A DNA stretch of 17,603 nucleotides from a virus (lineage: Duplodnaviria > Heunggongvirae > Uroviricota > Caudoviricetes), in IMG/VR virus record IMGVR_UViG_2711768068_000022, one strand, 5' to 3'. Each line of letters opens with the position of its first letter. The stretch's first letter is position 1. The notes beneath the pieces were generated by a model. The model saw only the letters and a list, made by a program, of their open reading frames with translations, ran no database searches and had not been told where the DNA came from. This document shows positions 1,462 to 14,248 of the stretch, piece after piece. A program made the position numbers and the translations under genes.

Positions 1462-1978
1462 ATATGTCCTTTTATCACTATACCAGGTCAAGTCATTGAT
1501 TTGATTAAACAATTATCATTGAAAAAGTGCCAAAAATCGCAAATTGACTACACCATTAACTACACCGTTCGGTGCACTGTATGAAACAACGTGGAACAAA
1601 TAGACACAAGAAATATACAGGCGGGTAATCTTTCCAGGGGGAAGCGCACCAATTCATGAGGGGCGTTAATGTCGATATGGGGATCCCCATAACGGGGCTA
1701 CCGGATTTTTTTTCCGGTTAACATTTAATCAGGCTGGTGGGTTTTACATACCCTTGATCACCGTAATGATGATCCAGATGTGCACCTTTTCCACCAATGG
1801 CGGAAAAGCTCCAACCGTAACGATGATCGCTATGGTTGCCTCGATGGTCTGCGTGGTCATTATGACCATTCAGCCAGTGACCTTAATCAGAATTTTTCGC
1901 TAAAAAATGACGTTGGCCACGTCATCCTGATAGCACAAAATCACGTCGACTTTTAATGAACGGTTAAACCGTCTTTTT

Positions 1979-5786: not shown

Positions 5787-6994
5787 TCCGGTTTTTCTCC
5801 CTCGCTGATTTTTACTTCCTGTTTCCATGCCTGACTGAACTCATCACCACCATCACGCGGTGACAGTCCTTCACGTTCGCGGGCTTCGTTCGGGCACATA
5901 ACGCCGGATTTGATGCCGCGCTCATAGGTGGCAAAGCGTTCGCCAGGTGTGGCCCGTAACAGGTCCGCGCTGTCAAACTCCACCTGATACCGGATACCAG
6001 GTACAGGCGAGGCCACCAGCAGGGCGTTTTTTATCTGCTGCTCAAAGTTCGCCAGCCACGGGCGCATCGTCATGGTGAGAAATGCGCGGCTTGCCTCGCT
6101 GAAATTGCTGTAGGTGCTGTTGCTGTATTCCTGCAAAAAAATCGGCGAGACGTTGAACATTCGGGCGATGTCTTCAATGGTAAAGCGACGGGAGGCCAGC
6201 CATTCAGCATCCTGATTACTCATGCCCAGCTGCTGATAGCTCATCCCCCCTTCAAGGATGGGCGTTTTTCCGGCGTTTCTGGCCCCTTTGTAGCGTTCCA
6301 GTGCGGCTAATGCCTGTTTGCCCTTCACGCCGTCCAGCCATTCGCCTGACGTGATAACCCCTGCCGCCATCATGCCATCACGCATCACGCTCGCGCCGTG
6401 GCGTTGTTGGGCCAGCCCAAGCCCCAGCGATTCGCGGCAGATGGTTACAGGTGAGCGCCCCATAAAGCCGTCATCCGTGGAGTAACGAAGGTGAAGTACT
6501 TCCCACGGTAAATAGTTGTGGGTGTTTCCGGTGTAGGCGTCAGTGATGCAATAGCGCCAGTTGTGTTCGCCTGTCTGCTCCACGTTCACCGACTGCGGCG
6601 GGTAAGGATGTAAAGCCGCCGGAAAACCATCACGCCCCCACTGAATAACCGCATAAGCATTACCGTTTAACAGGCAGTGGCGGATCATCATTCGCTTAAA
6701 CTGGTAGGGGGTTTGCCATGCGTTCGGGCGCTCGTTGAGGATGTGATCGACCGGATGAGAATCAAGCCACTCGCGGGCCTCCTTCCCCTTCTCATTGCGT
6801 ACCAGGTACAGGTAGCATGGCATAGTAGCCACCGCCTCAGAGATGACCGTAACGGCGTTCATGACGGCAGGCAGTGATTCCGCTGTCCCCGATGATACGT
6901 ACTCACCCGCCCCCGTGTTCGATGTGCCAGCCAGCGCCATAAATTCATCAAGCGTCATGCTGCGCTGCTCTTTTTTTCTTCTGAAAGGCCACAT
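5783..6994 (-). CDS. Portal protein (HK97 family)
   Basis: 403-aa ORF, size and position between protease and adaptors; GGGGGTG SD; ATG start. Confidence 0.88.
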   Translation of the reverse strand: MWPFRRKKEQRSMTLDEFMALAGTSNTGAGEYVSSGTAESLPAVMNAVTVISEAVATMPCYLYLVRNEKGKEAREWLDSHPVDHILNERPNAWQTPYQFKRMMIRHCLLNGNAYAVIQWGRDGFPAALHPYPPQSVNVEQTGEHNWRYCITDAYTGNTHNYLPWEVLHLRYSTDDGFMGRSPVTICRESLGLGLAQQRHGASVMRDGMMAAGVITSGEWLDGVKGKQALAALERYKGARNAGKTPILEGGMSYQQLGMSNQDAEWLASRRFTIEDIARMFNVSPIFLQEYSNSTYSNFSEASRAFLTMTMRPWLANFEQQIKNALLVASPVPGIRYQVEFDSADLLRATPGERFATYERGIKSGVMCPNEAREREGLSPRDGGDEFSQAWKQEVKISEGEKPE

Positions 6995-7568: not shown

Positions 7569-7577
7569 AAAACACTA

Positions 7578-7597
7578 AAGGGGCTTTTAAGCCCCTT
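7578..7597 (-). terminator. Stem-loop between major capsid and protease genes (possible partial terminator/attenuator)
   Basis: Palindrome AAGGGGC-TTTTAA-GCCCCTT in the 39-bp capsid-protease gap, followed on the minus strand by a U-rich stretch. Confidence 0.4.
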
Positions 7598-7607
7598 CTG
7601 TATGCTG

Positions 7608-8765
7608 TTAATCGTCGTCCTGTGGCAGTTCCAGAATCTTGATCGCGTTCGAATCCACCACGCCACCGCCTAAATATTTCTGCGTGAAAATTTTGATGAA
7701 GCCCGGCTCTGTGAGGTTGTCCGGTCTGGTGCGAACACCTGTTTCGTGATCAACAATGTAGTAACCGCGTTTGAAGTCACCCAGGGCAATAACGTTATCA
7801 GGCATAAACTCCAGATATTCGACCGGAAGGCCCAGCAACGTATCAGGATCACCCGCCTGTAAACGGTCACGCCAGATGTAATCACCGTTCGCGTTCTTCA
7901 CCTTCTGGAGTTTTGCCGCCGTCGTGGAGTTAACCACCCAGACCGCGTTTTTGCGGTATTTTTTACGTAATGCAAATTTCAGGTCGATCAGCGGGTCCGC
8001 AGATGTCCACGCCAGAGATTCGGAAGGTTTAATTACCTGCAACGTACCAAAATCACGCTCTTTGTCGTTCTTCTCTGCACGGGGTACGGATAAAAAACCT
8101 TTTGCTTTTTTGTCACCGTCGCCCACAACCAGATCGCTTTCTTCGGTTTCCGTGAAGGTGTCGCCAATCTCACCCGTCAGCCATGAAAGGATGTCCACAT
8201 CGGAAAAATCCACGATTTCCTGTGTGGTGCGCGGGTACGCATAGACCGGATACAGCTTAATGCTCACCTCGTTAATCTGCGGGGTGCTGGTCTGTTCGCG
8301 TGCCTTACCCTCTTCACCGTGGTTAACGGTCGCACCGCCAGCGGAAACAAGCTGCTTAAACTCGTTGCTGCTGATTTTTTTCACGGTACAGATGCGGCGC
8401 ATGGTGGACTCATCCGCCAGCATTCGCATGATTTCGGTGTTCAGTTCGGGGATAACGGTATAACCACCATCAGCGGGAACGCCTGTACTTAATGCGCGGG
8501 TTTCACCTGTCAGAATGTAGCTGCGTAGTTCTGCGGGGTCAGTGGTCTGGCTGCTTTTACCTGGCTTGCTGCGCTCTTCGTCTGCAATGGCTTCAAGGCG
8601 GGAAATGTCTTTATCGAGGGATTCAGCTTTAGCGCGTAATTCGTCAAATTTTGCGCCCTCAGCATCGTTAAGACTGCGGTTTTCTTTTTCCGCGTTCTCC
8701 AGCATGTCGCGCATCTGATTTTTAATGGCGGTTTTCTGCTGGCGTAATTCGATTATTCTCGGCAT
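7608..8765 (-). CDS. Major capsid protein (HK97 fold) with N-terminal scaffold-like delta domain
   Basis: 385-aa ORF; charged coiled-coil-like N-terminus (about 100 aa) followed by a capsid-like body; first gene of the head operon; ATG start. Confidence 0.88.
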   Translation of the reverse strand: MPRIIELRQQKTAIKNQMRDMLENAEKENRSLNDAEGAKFDELRAKAESLDKDISRLEAIADEERSKPGKSSQTTDPAELRSYILTGETRALSTGVPADGGYTVIPELNTEIMRMLADESTMRRICTVKKISSNEFKQLVSAGGATVNHGEEGKAREQTSTPQINEVSIKLYPVYAYPRTTQEIVDFSDVDILSWLTGEIGDTFTETEESDLVVGDGDKKAKGFLSVPRAEKNDKERDFGTLQVIKPSESLAWTSADPLIDLKFALRKKYRKNAVWVVNSTTAAKLQKVKNANGDYIWRDRLQAGDPDTLLGLPVEYLEFMPDNVIALGDFKRGYYIVDHETGVRTRPDNLTEPGFIKIFTQKYLGGGVVDSNAIKILELPQDDD

Positions 8766-9010
8766 AAAAAAAGTCCTGGGGTTAAGTAAGGAACTCCAGG
8801 ACGCGGCAAAAACTCAACCGTTTTTCATAAGGGAATCAGCAATCGCACCGATCGTTTTCCCGCCTGGTAATGAATATTGGCGAGCACATTAACAGGCGGG
8901 AAAGTGGCCCCAGCGTCCTGGCACCACGGGCGAGAATAATCATGATTCAGTTCGGGTAAAATATGCCGATCCGCTCAGTGAACAACGTGGAACAACCACG
9001 AACAAATAAT

Positions 9011-9046
9011 TTACAAAAAATAACAAAAAGCCGGATTGCTCCGGCT
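9011..9046 (-). terminator. Rho-independent terminator (minus strand), copy 1
   Basis: Hairpin AGCCGGA-ttgc-TCCGGCT (9029-9046) followed on the minus strand by UUUUUGUUAUUUUUUG; lies directly downstream of the 9057-9281 gene. Confidence 0.7.
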
Positions 9047-9056
9047 GTATGGGTGC

Positions 9057-9281
9057 TCAGTCCCTGATCCCTTTCAGAAATTCTATCAATGCATCTGTCT
9101 GTTCAGGATTTACCGCCAGCATTTCACCGGATAGCGCGCAACGAACAAAACCATGATGATCCTTTTCAATCAGCGCCCCCGTTTCCAGGAATGCGCGGTA
9201 ATCAGTGATGTTCATCGTCTCCATGTTGTCAGCATGGTATTTATCACGCTGTTTTAATATCTCATCAAATTTCGTCGGCAT
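9057..9281 (-). CDS. Hypothetical protein (74 aa), insulated single-gene cassette
   Basis: Start placed at the internal ATG 9279-9281 with AGAGGAA SD (the track ORF extends to 9359 but would leave no room after the upstream terminator); flanked by two identical terminator hairpins. Confidence 0.55.
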   Translation of the reverse strand: MPTKFDEILKQRDKYHADNMETMNITDYRAFLETGALIEKDHHGFVRCALSGEMLAVNPEQTDALIEFLKGIRD

Positions 9282-9375
9282 TGTTTTTTCCTCTGTTGTG
9301 TCTGTTTGTTTCAGATAGTAACTATGCCGGACCGTGACGAAAAGCCAGTAGTGCGCCATACCATTTCAAATGACG

Positions 9376-9400
9376 CAAAAAAAGCCGGATTGCTCCGGCT
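9376..9400 (-). terminator. Rho-independent terminator (minus strand), copy 2
   Basis: Same hairpin AGCCGGA-ttgc-TCCGGCT (9383-9400) followed on the minus strand by U7; directly downstream of the PerC-like gene stop (9423). Confidence 0.7.
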
Positions 9401-9422
9401 GCGTGGTGTGGTTCTGATATTC

Positions 9423-9671
9423 CTACTCAGCTAATTTGCTCAGCCCCATGTCTGCATAAGTGCGATTTACTGCATTTCTCAGGTCTGCGTAGTTCTCCGT
9501 TGGCGGCTCCGGTGGCCTCTGTGCCTTCCTGGAACATTCCAGCCGTCGCATCGTAACCTGATGCCGTTCCTTGTCTGTCTCCACCAGTTGCATGACTTCA
9601 CCCCATCGCGCCGACGCCCTCCGGTAAAAGCCTTTTGCCTCGAGTTCCTCCGCTATGCGGTCATGTACCAT
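9423..9671 (-). CDS. PerC-family-like transcriptional regulator (82 aa)
   Basis: Start placed at the internal ATG 9669-9671 with GAGGGGG SD, which avoids overlap with the SSB gene; motif AEELEAKGFYRRASARWGEVM resembles the conserved PerC core as recalled. Confidence 0.5.
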   Translation of the reverse strand: MVHDRIAEELEAKGFYRRASARWGEVMQLVETDKERHQVTMRRLECSRKAQRPPEPPTENYADLRNAVNRTYADMGLSKLAE

Positions 9672-9681
9672 CGTCACCCCC

Positions 9682-10092
9682 TCAGAACGGAATACCGTCA
9701 CCGTAAGGGTCATCGCCTCCCGCTGGTGGCTGATTACCCTGTGTGCCTGTGGTTTTGCGTCTGTTCCCGCCTGGACGTGCCGCGCGGGCACTGATTACGC
9801 TGTCTGCAATAACCTGATACCCCTGCCGTGTTTCCCCGTTCTGTCCGGTCCACTGGCTGATCTGCATGTTACCCGCCACGGTCAGGAGTTCACCTTTGCG
9901 GTGCCTTGCCAGTGCTTCGGCCTGTCTGCCAAATGCCAGGACGGATAACCACATCGTCACCGTTCCGTCATCTGCCTGGCTGCACGGAAGGGGGACCGCC
10001 ATACTCGCCATCGTCATTTGTGTGCCCTTGCTGGTGGTCTTTAACTGCGGGTCAGCCACCAGCCGCCCGTAAGCTGCAATTTGTGCTGTCAT
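9682..10092 (-). CDS. Single-stranded DNA-binding protein (SSB-like)
   Basis: 136-aa ORF; OB-fold-like pattern (GRLVADPQL...W..V..FG..AE...KG..L...G.....W) with Gly/Pro-rich tail ending DGIPF, as in the SSB acidic tail; GAGGTGG SD. Confidence 0.7.
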   Translation of the reverse strand: MTAQIAAYGRLVADPQLKTTSKGTQMTMASMAVPLPCSQADDGTVTMWLSVLAFGRQAEALARHRKGELLTVAGNMQISQWTGQNGETRQGYQVIADSVISARAARPGGNRRKTTGTQGNQPPAGGDDPYGDGIPF

Positions 10093-10665: not shown

Positions 10666-10875
10666 TGCCCACCTCTACCCACTTTTTTCGCCCACTTTTT
10701 ACGTTTTCCCACTTCGTCCAACGTGGGAAATTTGGGATTTATATCATCTTGTTTCATAGGTATTTTTTTAGTGCCCACTTTTTGGGATATATGCACGTGG
10801 GAAAGTGGGTAATTTTGTTAAAATTCCGTTAAATCGCCCACCTTTCCCACTTTTAATGCCCACTTTTTACAGTGG
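10666..10875. repeat. Iteron array with central AT-rich segment: putative replication origin
   Basis: About 8 direct copies of CCCAC(T/C)TTT plus inverted copies (ACGTGGGAAA, GTGGGAAAGTGGG) around an AT-rich stretch (about 10735-10770); lies at and just past the 3' end of the replication ATPase gene. Confidence 0.7.
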
Positions 10876-13404: not shown

Positions 13405-13690
13405 GTGAAAGGCTCCCAGATGAATTTTAAGGAGTCTCGCTACTACGCTGTCAAACATGGTGGCGAGACGTAACAGGGTTGACAGACTGGTCATCTGGAA
13501 ACCAGCGAGCACAAAGGCTCCCCCGTTACGCCCCGCCATAATGCGGGTATGGGTAGGTTTACGGACACAAAAAAACCGCTTATCGGATGTGGGCGGCTGT
13601 CCGCCAGATGTATTCAGGCTGTCAAACCCGGTCGCCATGTGGGCGACGGGGGAAGCATACAGCCCCGTGATAATTTTTTGCAAGCGGTTT

Positions 13691-14248
13691 TTACGCATGA
13701 TGTGACCCCTGACGAATACGGGCGGCGAATACAGCAACACAACCGGACGGGCAACGGCTACGCGCTTCGCGTTCCGTCCAGGCGGTTACGTGGATGATTT
13801 GATGTTCTGACGCGCCAAAGATGATAAAGCGCCAGAGAAAGGCGGTTTGAGAATGTACAAGGGTAGGGATAGTAGCCATGTTGGCAGCCTCCTCAGTGTG
13901 GTTAAGATAACCGCCACCGGAAACGCCAATTTCGCTGGTGGCGGACTGTACAGGGTTGGCGTAACCGGACACTGAAGAAACCGGCGCGGATTGCTCCGCC
14001 CCCGTACAGCCCACCATTGATAAGGTGTGACTATGCGGCACAAAAAAACACGCGGGGCGCGTGTTATGCGCTTCAGTTTTGCCCAGGACGCCAATCCCGG
14101 CACCCGTTTTATGAGGTGCGCGGGAATCATAGCTATTTTCGACACTGGCGATCAACTGGTTTTTTTCTCCGATATTCAGTGCCAGAAAACGCCACACAAA
14201 GGCAGTTTGTGTGTGTACAAGGTGTGGTATATGATTTACAGCAACCAT
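13691..14248 (-). CDS. Hypothetical protein (185 aa) with internal duplication; its C-terminal 62 aa (13691-13879) has its own strong SD and may be translated separately as paralog B
   Basis: ATG 14246-14248 with AGGAG SD and an upstream 5'-UTR hairpin; N-terminus MVAVNHIPHLVHTQTAFVWRF and internal MATIPTLVHSQTAFLWRF (GAGGAG SD) are paralogous. Confidence 0.4.
   Translation of the reverse strand: MVAVNHIPHLVHTQTAFVWRFLALNIGEKNQLIASVENSYDSRAPHKTGAGIGVLGKTEAHNTRPACFFVPHSHTLSMVGCTGAEQSAPVSSVSGYANPVQSATSEIGVSGGGYLNHTEEAANMATIPTLVHSQTAFLWRFIIFGASEHQIIHVTAWTEREARSRCPSGCVAVFAARIRQGSHHA

Follow-up and report, generated by a model that had tools for sequence, protein, structure and literature searches.

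A small gene between two copies of one predicted terminator at the early/capsid border of a capsid-forming phage satellite of Escherichia coli

The IMG/VR virus record IMGVR_UViG_2711768068_000022 comprises 17,603 nucleotides (the window hereafter, to whose full length all coordinates refer unless another genome is named), and the subject of this report is a short cassette near its middle, in which an open reading frame (ORF) of 74 codons lies between two copies of the same hairpin. All genes annotated with Pfam and PGAP are on the minus strand: integrase, AlpA, Ash/Icd-like genes, DUF4222, the RepA helicase, two small ORFs, SSB and PerC and, past the cassette, the HK97-type capsid protein, prohead protease, portal, head closure, connector, HNH, TerS and TerL. 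The same annotation contains no tail or lysis genes in the island; the PGAP part was read from a locus (L001) that is 100% identical over a 1-kb query (window 8800-9800). As judged from this gene content, the window is a capsid-forming phage-inducible chromosomal island (cf-PICI), i.e., a phage satellite, and a close relative of EcCIEDL933: it combines int, alpA and a replicase with packaging genes in about 15 kb, lacks tail and lysis functions, has its own att site, and shares with EcCIEDL933 both the integration site (roxA|phoQ) and the gene order. This set and order of genes match those of the cf-PICIs, for which EcCIEDL933 is the prototype (bioRxiv 10.1101/2022.09.08.507074). An earlier model-made description of the same DNA (the sequence-only reading) had placed the cassette between a replication and a head operon, and this is where it lies, with perC, ssb and repA on one side and the capsid gene on the other (Table 1). 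The G+C content of the cassette is 43-46%, compared with 59-61% in the perC/ssb block and about 50-54% in the capsid gene.

Table 1. Features of the early/capsid junction, in the order in which they are read on the minus strand.
Feature	Position	Strand	Basis or remark
perC-family gene, last of the early (alpA to perC) operon	9423..9671	-	Pfam PerC E=3e-35; PGAP of L001
28-nt direct repeat, upstream copy (23 nt exact)	9379..9406	-	repeat search, pattern test
Terminator A (predicted): hairpin 9400-9383 + U-run	9377..9400	-	22 nt after perC stop; would close the early operon; scan, fold
Cassette promoter: -35 TTTTCG (9343-9338), 17-nt spacer, -10 TACTAT (9320-9315)	9315..9343	-	7/12 to consensus; EDL933 start site
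Transcription start (A), 26-nt 5' untranslated region	9307..9307	-	placed by homology with EDL933
Shine-Dalgarno sequence AGAGG, 8 nt before ATG	9290..9294	-	read from sequence
74-aa ORF (WP_001142405.1), small acidic protein, phrog_1957	9057..9281	-	translation, profile match
28-nt direct repeat, downstream copy	9025..9052	-	repeat search
Terminator B (predicted): hairpin 9046-9029 + U-rich tail	9014..9046	-	10 nt after ORF stop; scan, fold
Capsid-operon promoter region: box TGTAAATTATTTGTTC (9015-9000, -35 TTGTTC 9005-9000), -10 TTCACT (8982-8977)	8977..9015	-	left boundary of packaging module
Structured capsid-operon leader, 205 nt	8766..8970	-	fold z = -4.68 vs shuffles; start site from EDL933
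HK97-type major capsid gene, first of packaging operon	7608..8765	-	Pfam Phage_capsid E=2e-61

On the plus strand, the sequence AGCCGGATTGCTCCGGCT stands at 9029-9046 and again at 9383-9400. Read on the minus strand, both copies give the 18-nt hairpin AGCCGGA-GCAA-TCCGGCT, with a loop of the GNRA type, and this is followed by TTTTTTGCG in the upstream copy (A) and by TTTTGTTATTTTTTG in the downstream copy (B), where the tail runs into the promoter of the capsid operon. The two identical hairpins with U-runs on which the sequence-only reading was built are confirmed by direct reading, by a terminator scan that picks up both copies (7 pairs, 5 of them G-C, and a 4-nt loop) and by folding (-12.6 kcal/mol each; z = -3.0 and -4.8 relative to shuffled sequences). 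Their identity over 18 bp was correctly described; the extent of the repeat was not, as it is really 23 nt when exact and 28 nt with 2 mismatches (9025-9052 / 9379-9406), with a spacing of 354 nt. The 22-nt pattern has 2 matches in the window and none in any of 200 shuffles. Both copies display the features of a Rho-independent terminator, namely a G+C-rich stem, a short loop, a 3' U-run, co-orientation with the genes and a position just past a stop codon, from which we infer that termination would be efficient at both. A third, partial copy of the hairpin core, located in a C4 RNA (13987-14005), was discarded, since a 12-nt match is at chance level among all pairs in 17.6 kb.

The bracketed ORF and its own Shine-Dalgarno sequence were likewise found as previously described. 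A longer reading of 100 aa, from 9359, was rejected: the homologues all begin at the MP.. start, and the transcription start mapped in a related island (see below) excludes the longer form. With dN/dS values of 0.17-0.31, sequence comparison shows a real gene under purifying selection.

That this gene has its own promoter is indicated by data from E. coli O157:H7 EDL933, for which an atlas of transcription start sites (TSS) obtained by Cappable-seq is available (PMC10469882, Table S5). The resident island of that strain, EcCIEDL933, has the same cassette with two hairpins (EDL933_RS08695), about 93% identical to that of the window; it differs in the loop of the upstream hairpin, which is GAAA, and in its replicase, which is of another type (DUF927). 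In EDL933, the small gene has a start at 1687581 (+) in 8/8 conditions, which covered LB, M9, acid and salt, exponential as well as stationary phase, and no inducer (PMC10469882). This position is an A (L225 19581); TACTAT lies 7 nt ahead of it, and the ATG of the 74-aa ORF follows 26 nt further on. Because the window does not differ from EDL933 between the -10 and the ATG, has the same -35 and departs from it in the spacer at one base, the start was placed at 9307, and the promoter of the window would be expected to fire like that of EDL933. A consensus scan had returned no promoter with at least 9/12 matches; this one was missed because it has only 7/12. In the atlas the start is filed among those downstream of an annotated start codon (the category of the sheet being judged from its other rows), which fits the older 100-aa annotation and argues against the longer ORF. 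For the neighboring genes, starts are reported at 1687918 for the capsid gene RS08700 (7/8 conditions), at 1680288 for int (7/8) and at 1681879-1681896 for alpA (up to 7/8), and the sheet of gene-upstream starts (gTSS) has none for RS08640-RS08690, the early genes including perC, so that alpA (RS08635) is directly followed by the capsid gene (PMC10469882).

These data suggest that three separately initiated units stand in a row. The early operon (alpA, rep, ssb, perC) would end at hairpin A. The small-gene unit would then consist of a weak sigma-70 promoter (TTTTCG-17-TACTAT), the start at 9307, a 26-nt leader containing the Shine-Dalgarno sequence, 74 codons and the second terminator copy, and would yield a transcript of about 285 nt that carries this gene alone and stops at hairpin B. 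The capsid operon would come third, with a promoter that starts within 10 nt of the hairpin B tail. On this model, the small gene would be transcribed while the island is resident and uninduced. The cassette is thus probably an autonomous promoter-gene-terminator unit of the moron-like kind, and we give this reading a probability of roughly 0.8. The transcript mapping that had been recommended as a check was in effect available from the published Cappable-seq data on the homologous island, and the independent promoter that it revealed, active in all conditions behind -10 and -35 elements conserved in the window, means that expression by read-through without a promoter does not hold. An early working model of that kind was overturned by the same data. 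Antitermination by AlpA through both hairpins, after the example of the antiterminator AlpA of Pseudomonas aeruginosa, was also considered and dropped: the P. aeruginosa protein is larger and 21Q-like (PMC9371919), and the 62-aa AlpA of the window matches only PDB 8c3t and not those chains.

Several observations weigh against an autonomous unit. The TSS was measured in a strain other than that of the window, with a cassette that is about 93% identical, and the promoter agrees with the consensus at only 7/12 positions. The terminators are predictions; some read-through from perC is likely, and it may contribute to expression. The diverged locus L074 has a degenerate upstream hairpin and TACTGT as its -10, and the small gene may be co-transcribed with perC there. 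Finally, in other genera the homologue directly follows ori iterons or another gene and has no upstream terminator, so the insulated form is specific to the E. coli lineage. Part of this evidence also bears on a different explanation, in which the early operon simply extends to the small gene as its final member, expressed only by leakage through terminator A and not independently transcribed, and module shuffling duplicated the hairpin by accident. The failure of the promoter scan to reach 9/12, the Klebsiella/Enterobacter-type homologues placed 10-20 nt after ori iterons or another ORF with no terminator between, and the degenerate hairpin of L074 all agree with it. It is nonetheless very unlikely, given the primary (5'-triphosphate) start that lies 26 nt before the ATG in EcCIEDL933 in 8/8 conditions, at the correct spacing from the -10, and the lack of starts between alpA and the small gene in the gene-upstream sheet.

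The cassette is also a unit of gain and loss. The 336 nt between the hairpins were found in 539/5426 complete E. coli genomes, at 592 places, and every copy was at least 98% complete and at least 90% identical. In six matches (H51-H56) the flanks are kept and about 354 nt are missing, and in L003 flanks that are 99% identical enclose one hairpin only. In L017 and L027 the left flank of copy A is joined to the right tail of copy B, as expected of a crossover inside the repeat. The loops of the two copies are GCAA/GCAA in the window, GAAA/GCAA in O157 and GAAA/GAAA elsewhere, and the fact that all combinations occur suggests repeated exchange between copies. The gene is therefore not strictly conserved among all relatives of the island, since near-identical islands lack the 354-nt unit. 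With a direct repeat of 23-28 nt at a distance of 354 nt, the unit could be deleted by recombination or slippage between the repeats, and it could be regained by homologous exchange with a cassette-bearing island; the presence/absence polymorphism in E. coli would then exist because of deletion and regain through the duplicated terminator. The indel alleles and their recombinant junctions are directly visible in the aligned loci, and recombination is the route that they point to.

An exact 23-mer scan of IMG/VR returned 48 loci. In a later hairpin scan of IMG/VR, loci with two hairpins have them 354-364 nt apart, with the single exception of L189, in which the spacing is 3055 nt and the sequence context unrelated. 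What lies between paired hairpins in the earlier, 48-locus sample is the small gene: different cargo between the same hairpins in homologous islands, which the sequence-only reading had thought worth looking for, was not found among the IMG/VR hairpin loci in any PICI context. Nor was the cassette ever found outside the perC/capsid junction, either in the E. coli genomes or in the IMG/VR hairpin loci. These results bear on the proposal that the hairpins are not terminators at all and serve a mobile gene cassette as DNA-level recombination sites, either attC-like or of the transposon-end type. Identical inverted repeats that flank one gene, and precise presence/absence alleles, would be natural in such a system. 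However, the island has neither an integron integrase nor a transposase, its sole recombinase being the tyrosine integrase at the far end; the hairpins are 18 nt long, co-oriented with the genes, stand 10-22 nt past stop codons and have a U-run behind them in every case; their loop variation stays within GNRA; the cassette never leaves the perC/capsid junction; and empty sites keep one full copy, as predicted by homologous recombination between direct repeats. We thus consider it extremely improbable that the hairpins are sites of this type.

The same hairpin occurs well beyond cassette-bearing islands. In 44/48 loci of the IMG/VR scan it comes right after the perC stop codon; in the other 4/48 it follows a different gene, and a distant perC homologue is located elsewhere in the contig or was not detected. 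At least three different upstream ends precede it, and at least four kinds of sequence come after it: the capsid leader of cf-PICIs, a second terminator leading into a capsid module of the lambda E/D type, a G+C-rich non-coding piece of about 200 nt, and the leader of the small gene. The stem is invariant and the loop is only GCAA or GAAA, both GNRA; in a 73%-diverged relative, a different hairpin with a U-run follows the small gene. By its sequence and its placement, the hairpin is a predicted terminator at the end of the early alpA-to-perC operon of many E. coli PICIs, and a junction shared between modules. Its pattern of variation fits an RNA-level terminator that doubles as a short homology patch for module exchange. 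An exact 22-mer version with the GAAA loop is also present in unrelated A+T-rich viral contigs of IMG/VR (e.g., L161, L163, L203); the hairpin alone is not diagnostic of PICIs, because this count is about what chance would give for a 7-bp palindrome with a T-run in such a collection.

Two further observations were made at this junction. The alternative non-coding piece has the form GGTxCTCCTGG..CCACGGGGCGG..GCGCGGAAAAAGGCGCATTTTT and is followed by a bidirectional-looking terminator, AAAAAAGCCCGATAAG..CTTATCGGGCTTTT; it was seen in L074 (700-930), L005 (minus strand, about 2700-2900), L009, L010, L013 and L035 and in 12 loci of the later hairpin scan, and in L074 it gave no Rfam match and no convincing ORF. 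In O157-type islands, a pseudogene labelled as a frameshifted 'trigger factor' is annotated by PGAP across hairpin A and the 3' end of perC (L002 3523-3638; L225 19451-19566, EDL933_RS35125), which is almost certainly an annotation artefact.

Close relatives of the 74-aa protein were found only in E. coli-type sequences. An exhaustive HMMER search followed by a profile search extended the family to about 80 clusters of Enterobacterales, with 32-49% identity, from Klebsiella, Enterobacter, Citrobacter, Salmonella, Serratia, Pectobacterium, Xenorhabdus and others; all of these clusters are unnamed and none has a Pfam domain. A 1383-aa repeat-rich protein (P0024, leucine-rich by eye) that appeared in the exhaustive search was judged to be a repeat artefact. 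The context is constant: members are found in PICIs, behind the replicase and the ori iterons and ahead of a capsid module, of which three types occur. A link to the replicase type was discarded, as the gene is found both with RepA-helicase and with primase-type replicases. Its frequency was assessed in 80 cf-PICI loci of the Klebsiella/Enterobacter type picked by their capsid gene alone, of which 77 had enough upstream sequence: a family member is present in 59/77 and none in 18/77. Most of these 18 have a small ORF of 60 aa or of 111-114 aa in that region, and the others have a 281-aa ORF, a gene on the opposite strand, or an apparent transposase insertion of the IS5/IS1182 type next to the leader. 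In these other genera a terminator usually follows the homologue, and variable accessory genes are found between that terminator and the capsid leader. The gene is thus frequent and fixed in position but dispensable, and the distribution of the family looks more like that of an ancestral satellite gene of this slot than like that of foreign or random cargo. In several Klebsiella, Enterobacter and Kluyvera PICIs (L059-L064, about 6294-6806, opposite strand), a convergent 170-aa ORF (MxFDFxxMAYPDIFLISG..) comes right behind the homologue's terminator; it sits in the mid-island accessory slot and gave no Pfam match.

Downstream of the cassette, the box TGTAAATTATTTGTTC opens the leader in every cf-PICI examined. 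The capsid TSS of EDL933 (1687918) maps to window 8970, behind TTGTTC-17-TTCACT, and because of this position the box is taken to contain the -35. Within the leader, the hairpin GTCCTGG..CCAGGAC (8802-8773) with its U7 ends directly at the capsid ATG, and its 3' arm holds the only Shine-Dalgarno sequence (AGGA); it is therefore predicted to be a terminator-like element that sequesters this sequence. A second strong hairpin lies at 8856-8903, and Rfam returned nothing for window 8600-9500. On the minus strand of 8977-9015, TTGTTC occurs three times in a 10-nt phase across the capsid promoter (-35, spacer and -10), and the 15-mer TTGTTCCACGTTGTT recurs at 1585-1599 (minus), at the island end next to phoQ, a recurrence that by itself is only weakly above chance; a regulator of the island, for instance AlpA or Int, could bind to these repeats. 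In the gap between the capsid and protease genes, a strong terminator-like hairpin at 7577-7598 (minus; 9 pairs, -15.4 kcal/mol) could lower the expression of the downstream packaging genes relative to capsid protein. In uninduced EDL933 (L225, 1680288-1692589), the int, alpA and capsid-operon promoters all have primary starts in most conditions, which fits the reported release, without induction, of cf-PICI capsids that lack tails (10.1101/2025.02.11.637232).

A further proposal is that the small protein regulates the capsid operon, as activator, anti-activator or repressor, in which case the cassette would form part of an early-to-late switch of capsid-forming satellites and would not be an accessory gene. 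Its gene is always on the upstream side of the capsid-promoter box, and half of the Klebsiella-type islands have it only about 236 nt away from the capsid ATG; all PICIs in which the family was found encode a capsid of their own, with three capsid types; and perC, which belongs to a transcription factor family, has the equivalent position of last early gene. Such a function is unlikely, however, for a protein that is acidic (pI 5.0, net charge -5) and has no match to a DNA-binding motif or fold, and a role as a DNA-binding regulator in particular is unlikely. Moreover, many functional-looking cf-PICIs do without the gene (many E. coli islands and about 23% of the Klebsiella type), an island that does carry it has an active capsid TSS in 7/8 uninduced conditions, and all sampled hairpin-bearing islands encode capsids, so that the association with capsids comes without a negative control.

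The protein itself has a size of 8.5 kDa. It matches the profile phrog_1957 over residues 1-74 (E = 1.5e-39), which PHROGs labels 'unknown function', and its conserved positions include Y28, R47, S51, E53, E60, Q61 and D63. The AF2 model (pLDDT 82) consists of three helices, three strands and a helix. No match was obtained in Pfam or NCBIfam, in PADLOC at E <= 1, or by tblastn against 50,697 phage records, a set expected to contain phi80, a phage that carries Tai; Foldseek found no structure in PDB or BFVD with E below 0.8, and a profile search of PDB only a marginal match, to N.BspD6I (E = 0.0015). Homology search and structure prediction, the other check proposed for this protein, thus produced homologues and neither a fold relative nor a named family. 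Literature searches with locus tags and protein accessions gave no match, and the text of the cf-PICI preprint, which describes mutants of the packaging module only, does not mention the small gene (bioRxiv 10.1101/2022.09.08.507074).

With regard to function, the constitutive promoter in the resident state and the variable presence of the gene would suit an anti-phage, exclusion or anti-defence factor. Among inhibitors that work through binding, small acidic proteins are frequent. The position, too, is that of the mid-island accessory and immune region of PICIs (PMC11364771), of which the gene could be one cargo. This assignment is doubtful: PADLOC gave no match, the protein is not Tai (TaiEcA has about 26 kDa, versus 8.5 kDa here), and the variable accessory genes lie downstream of the small gene, past its terminator, which makes it look like the upstream border of the hotspot and not its content. 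It is possible, if well short of even odds, that the small acidic protein binds a protein partner in the carrier state, e.g., a component of the helper or of a competing phage. More tentatively still, the whole orf74 family may be a dedicated factor of capsid-encoding satellites, made constitutively in the carrier state from the early/capsid border, that binds a protein of the helper or of a competing phage, e.g., as a new single-protein exclusion or helper-sensing function with a fold that has no detectable relatives.

Elsewhere in the island, Rfam identified two C4 antisense RNAs, an isrK-like RNA and a c4 a1/b1 target element in window 13456-14119 (minus). These elements lie in or next to a tandemly duplicated segment (repeats 14270-14322/15018-15070 and 14615-14689/15300-15374), near an Ash-family ORF, and Icd-like genes are found in the related locus L001. 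By these matches, the region is a putative P1/P7-style c4-icd-ant immunity module inside a cf-PICI. Directly after repA, three copies of TTTTAxTGCCCACTTTTT with a spacing of 83-85 nt (10683-10868) are probably ori iterons; Klebsiella-type islands have GTGCGGCA iterons at the equivalent place instead.

The cf-PICIs are recently described and widespread satellites, and little is known about their biology in the resident state. The cassette provides a precise three-unit map of their early/late junction, on which two promoters and two terminators are placed by coordinate; the duplicated terminator would explain a common indel polymorphism; and an uncharacterized protein family, transcribed from a resident island and carried by most capsid-forming satellites of Enterobacterales, is singled out. 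If the protein does act on helper or competing phages, it would be a new player in the conflict between satellites and phages. Should it have no measurable effect, the locus still illustrates in compact form how a terminator is coupled to a promoter and how terminators can serve as recombination junctions.

In kind, the elements of this locus are known: an accessory transcription unit, the duplication of a terminator and recombination between short repeats have precedents, and it is the protein family that is uncharacterized. PICIs possess a mid-island accessory/immune region 'adjacent to the pri gene', in which single-gene Tai systems are constitutively expressed (PMC11364771). The cassette resembles it in its place between the replication and packaging modules, its variable content and its constitutive cargo; it differs in that Tai, with about 23-26 kDa, is unrelated in size to the 74-aa protein. 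Mosaic lambdoid phages have conserved boundary sequences at their module junctions. The PICI hairpin is similar to these as a short conserved stretch common to otherwise different modules, and differs in that the shared stretch is itself a functional-looking terminator of only 23-28 nt. The closest comparison is with the morons, which are said to have been defined by Juhala et al. in 2000 for lambdoid phages of the HK97/HK022 type. As in a moron, a single additional gene comes with a promoter of its own and with a factor-independent terminator, here predicted; it is present or absent among relatives at the same junction, has a base composition unlike that of its neighbors and is transcribed in the quiescent element. 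Unlike a moron, the cassette sits in a satellite, between early and late operons and not inside a late operon, and the same terminator stands on both sides of it. The sequence-only reading, which likened it to a phage moron, is thus supported as to the autonomous architecture and needs correction on two points: the host element is a satellite and not a phage, and the cargo is not arbitrary, the same family being conserved in the same slot across genera.

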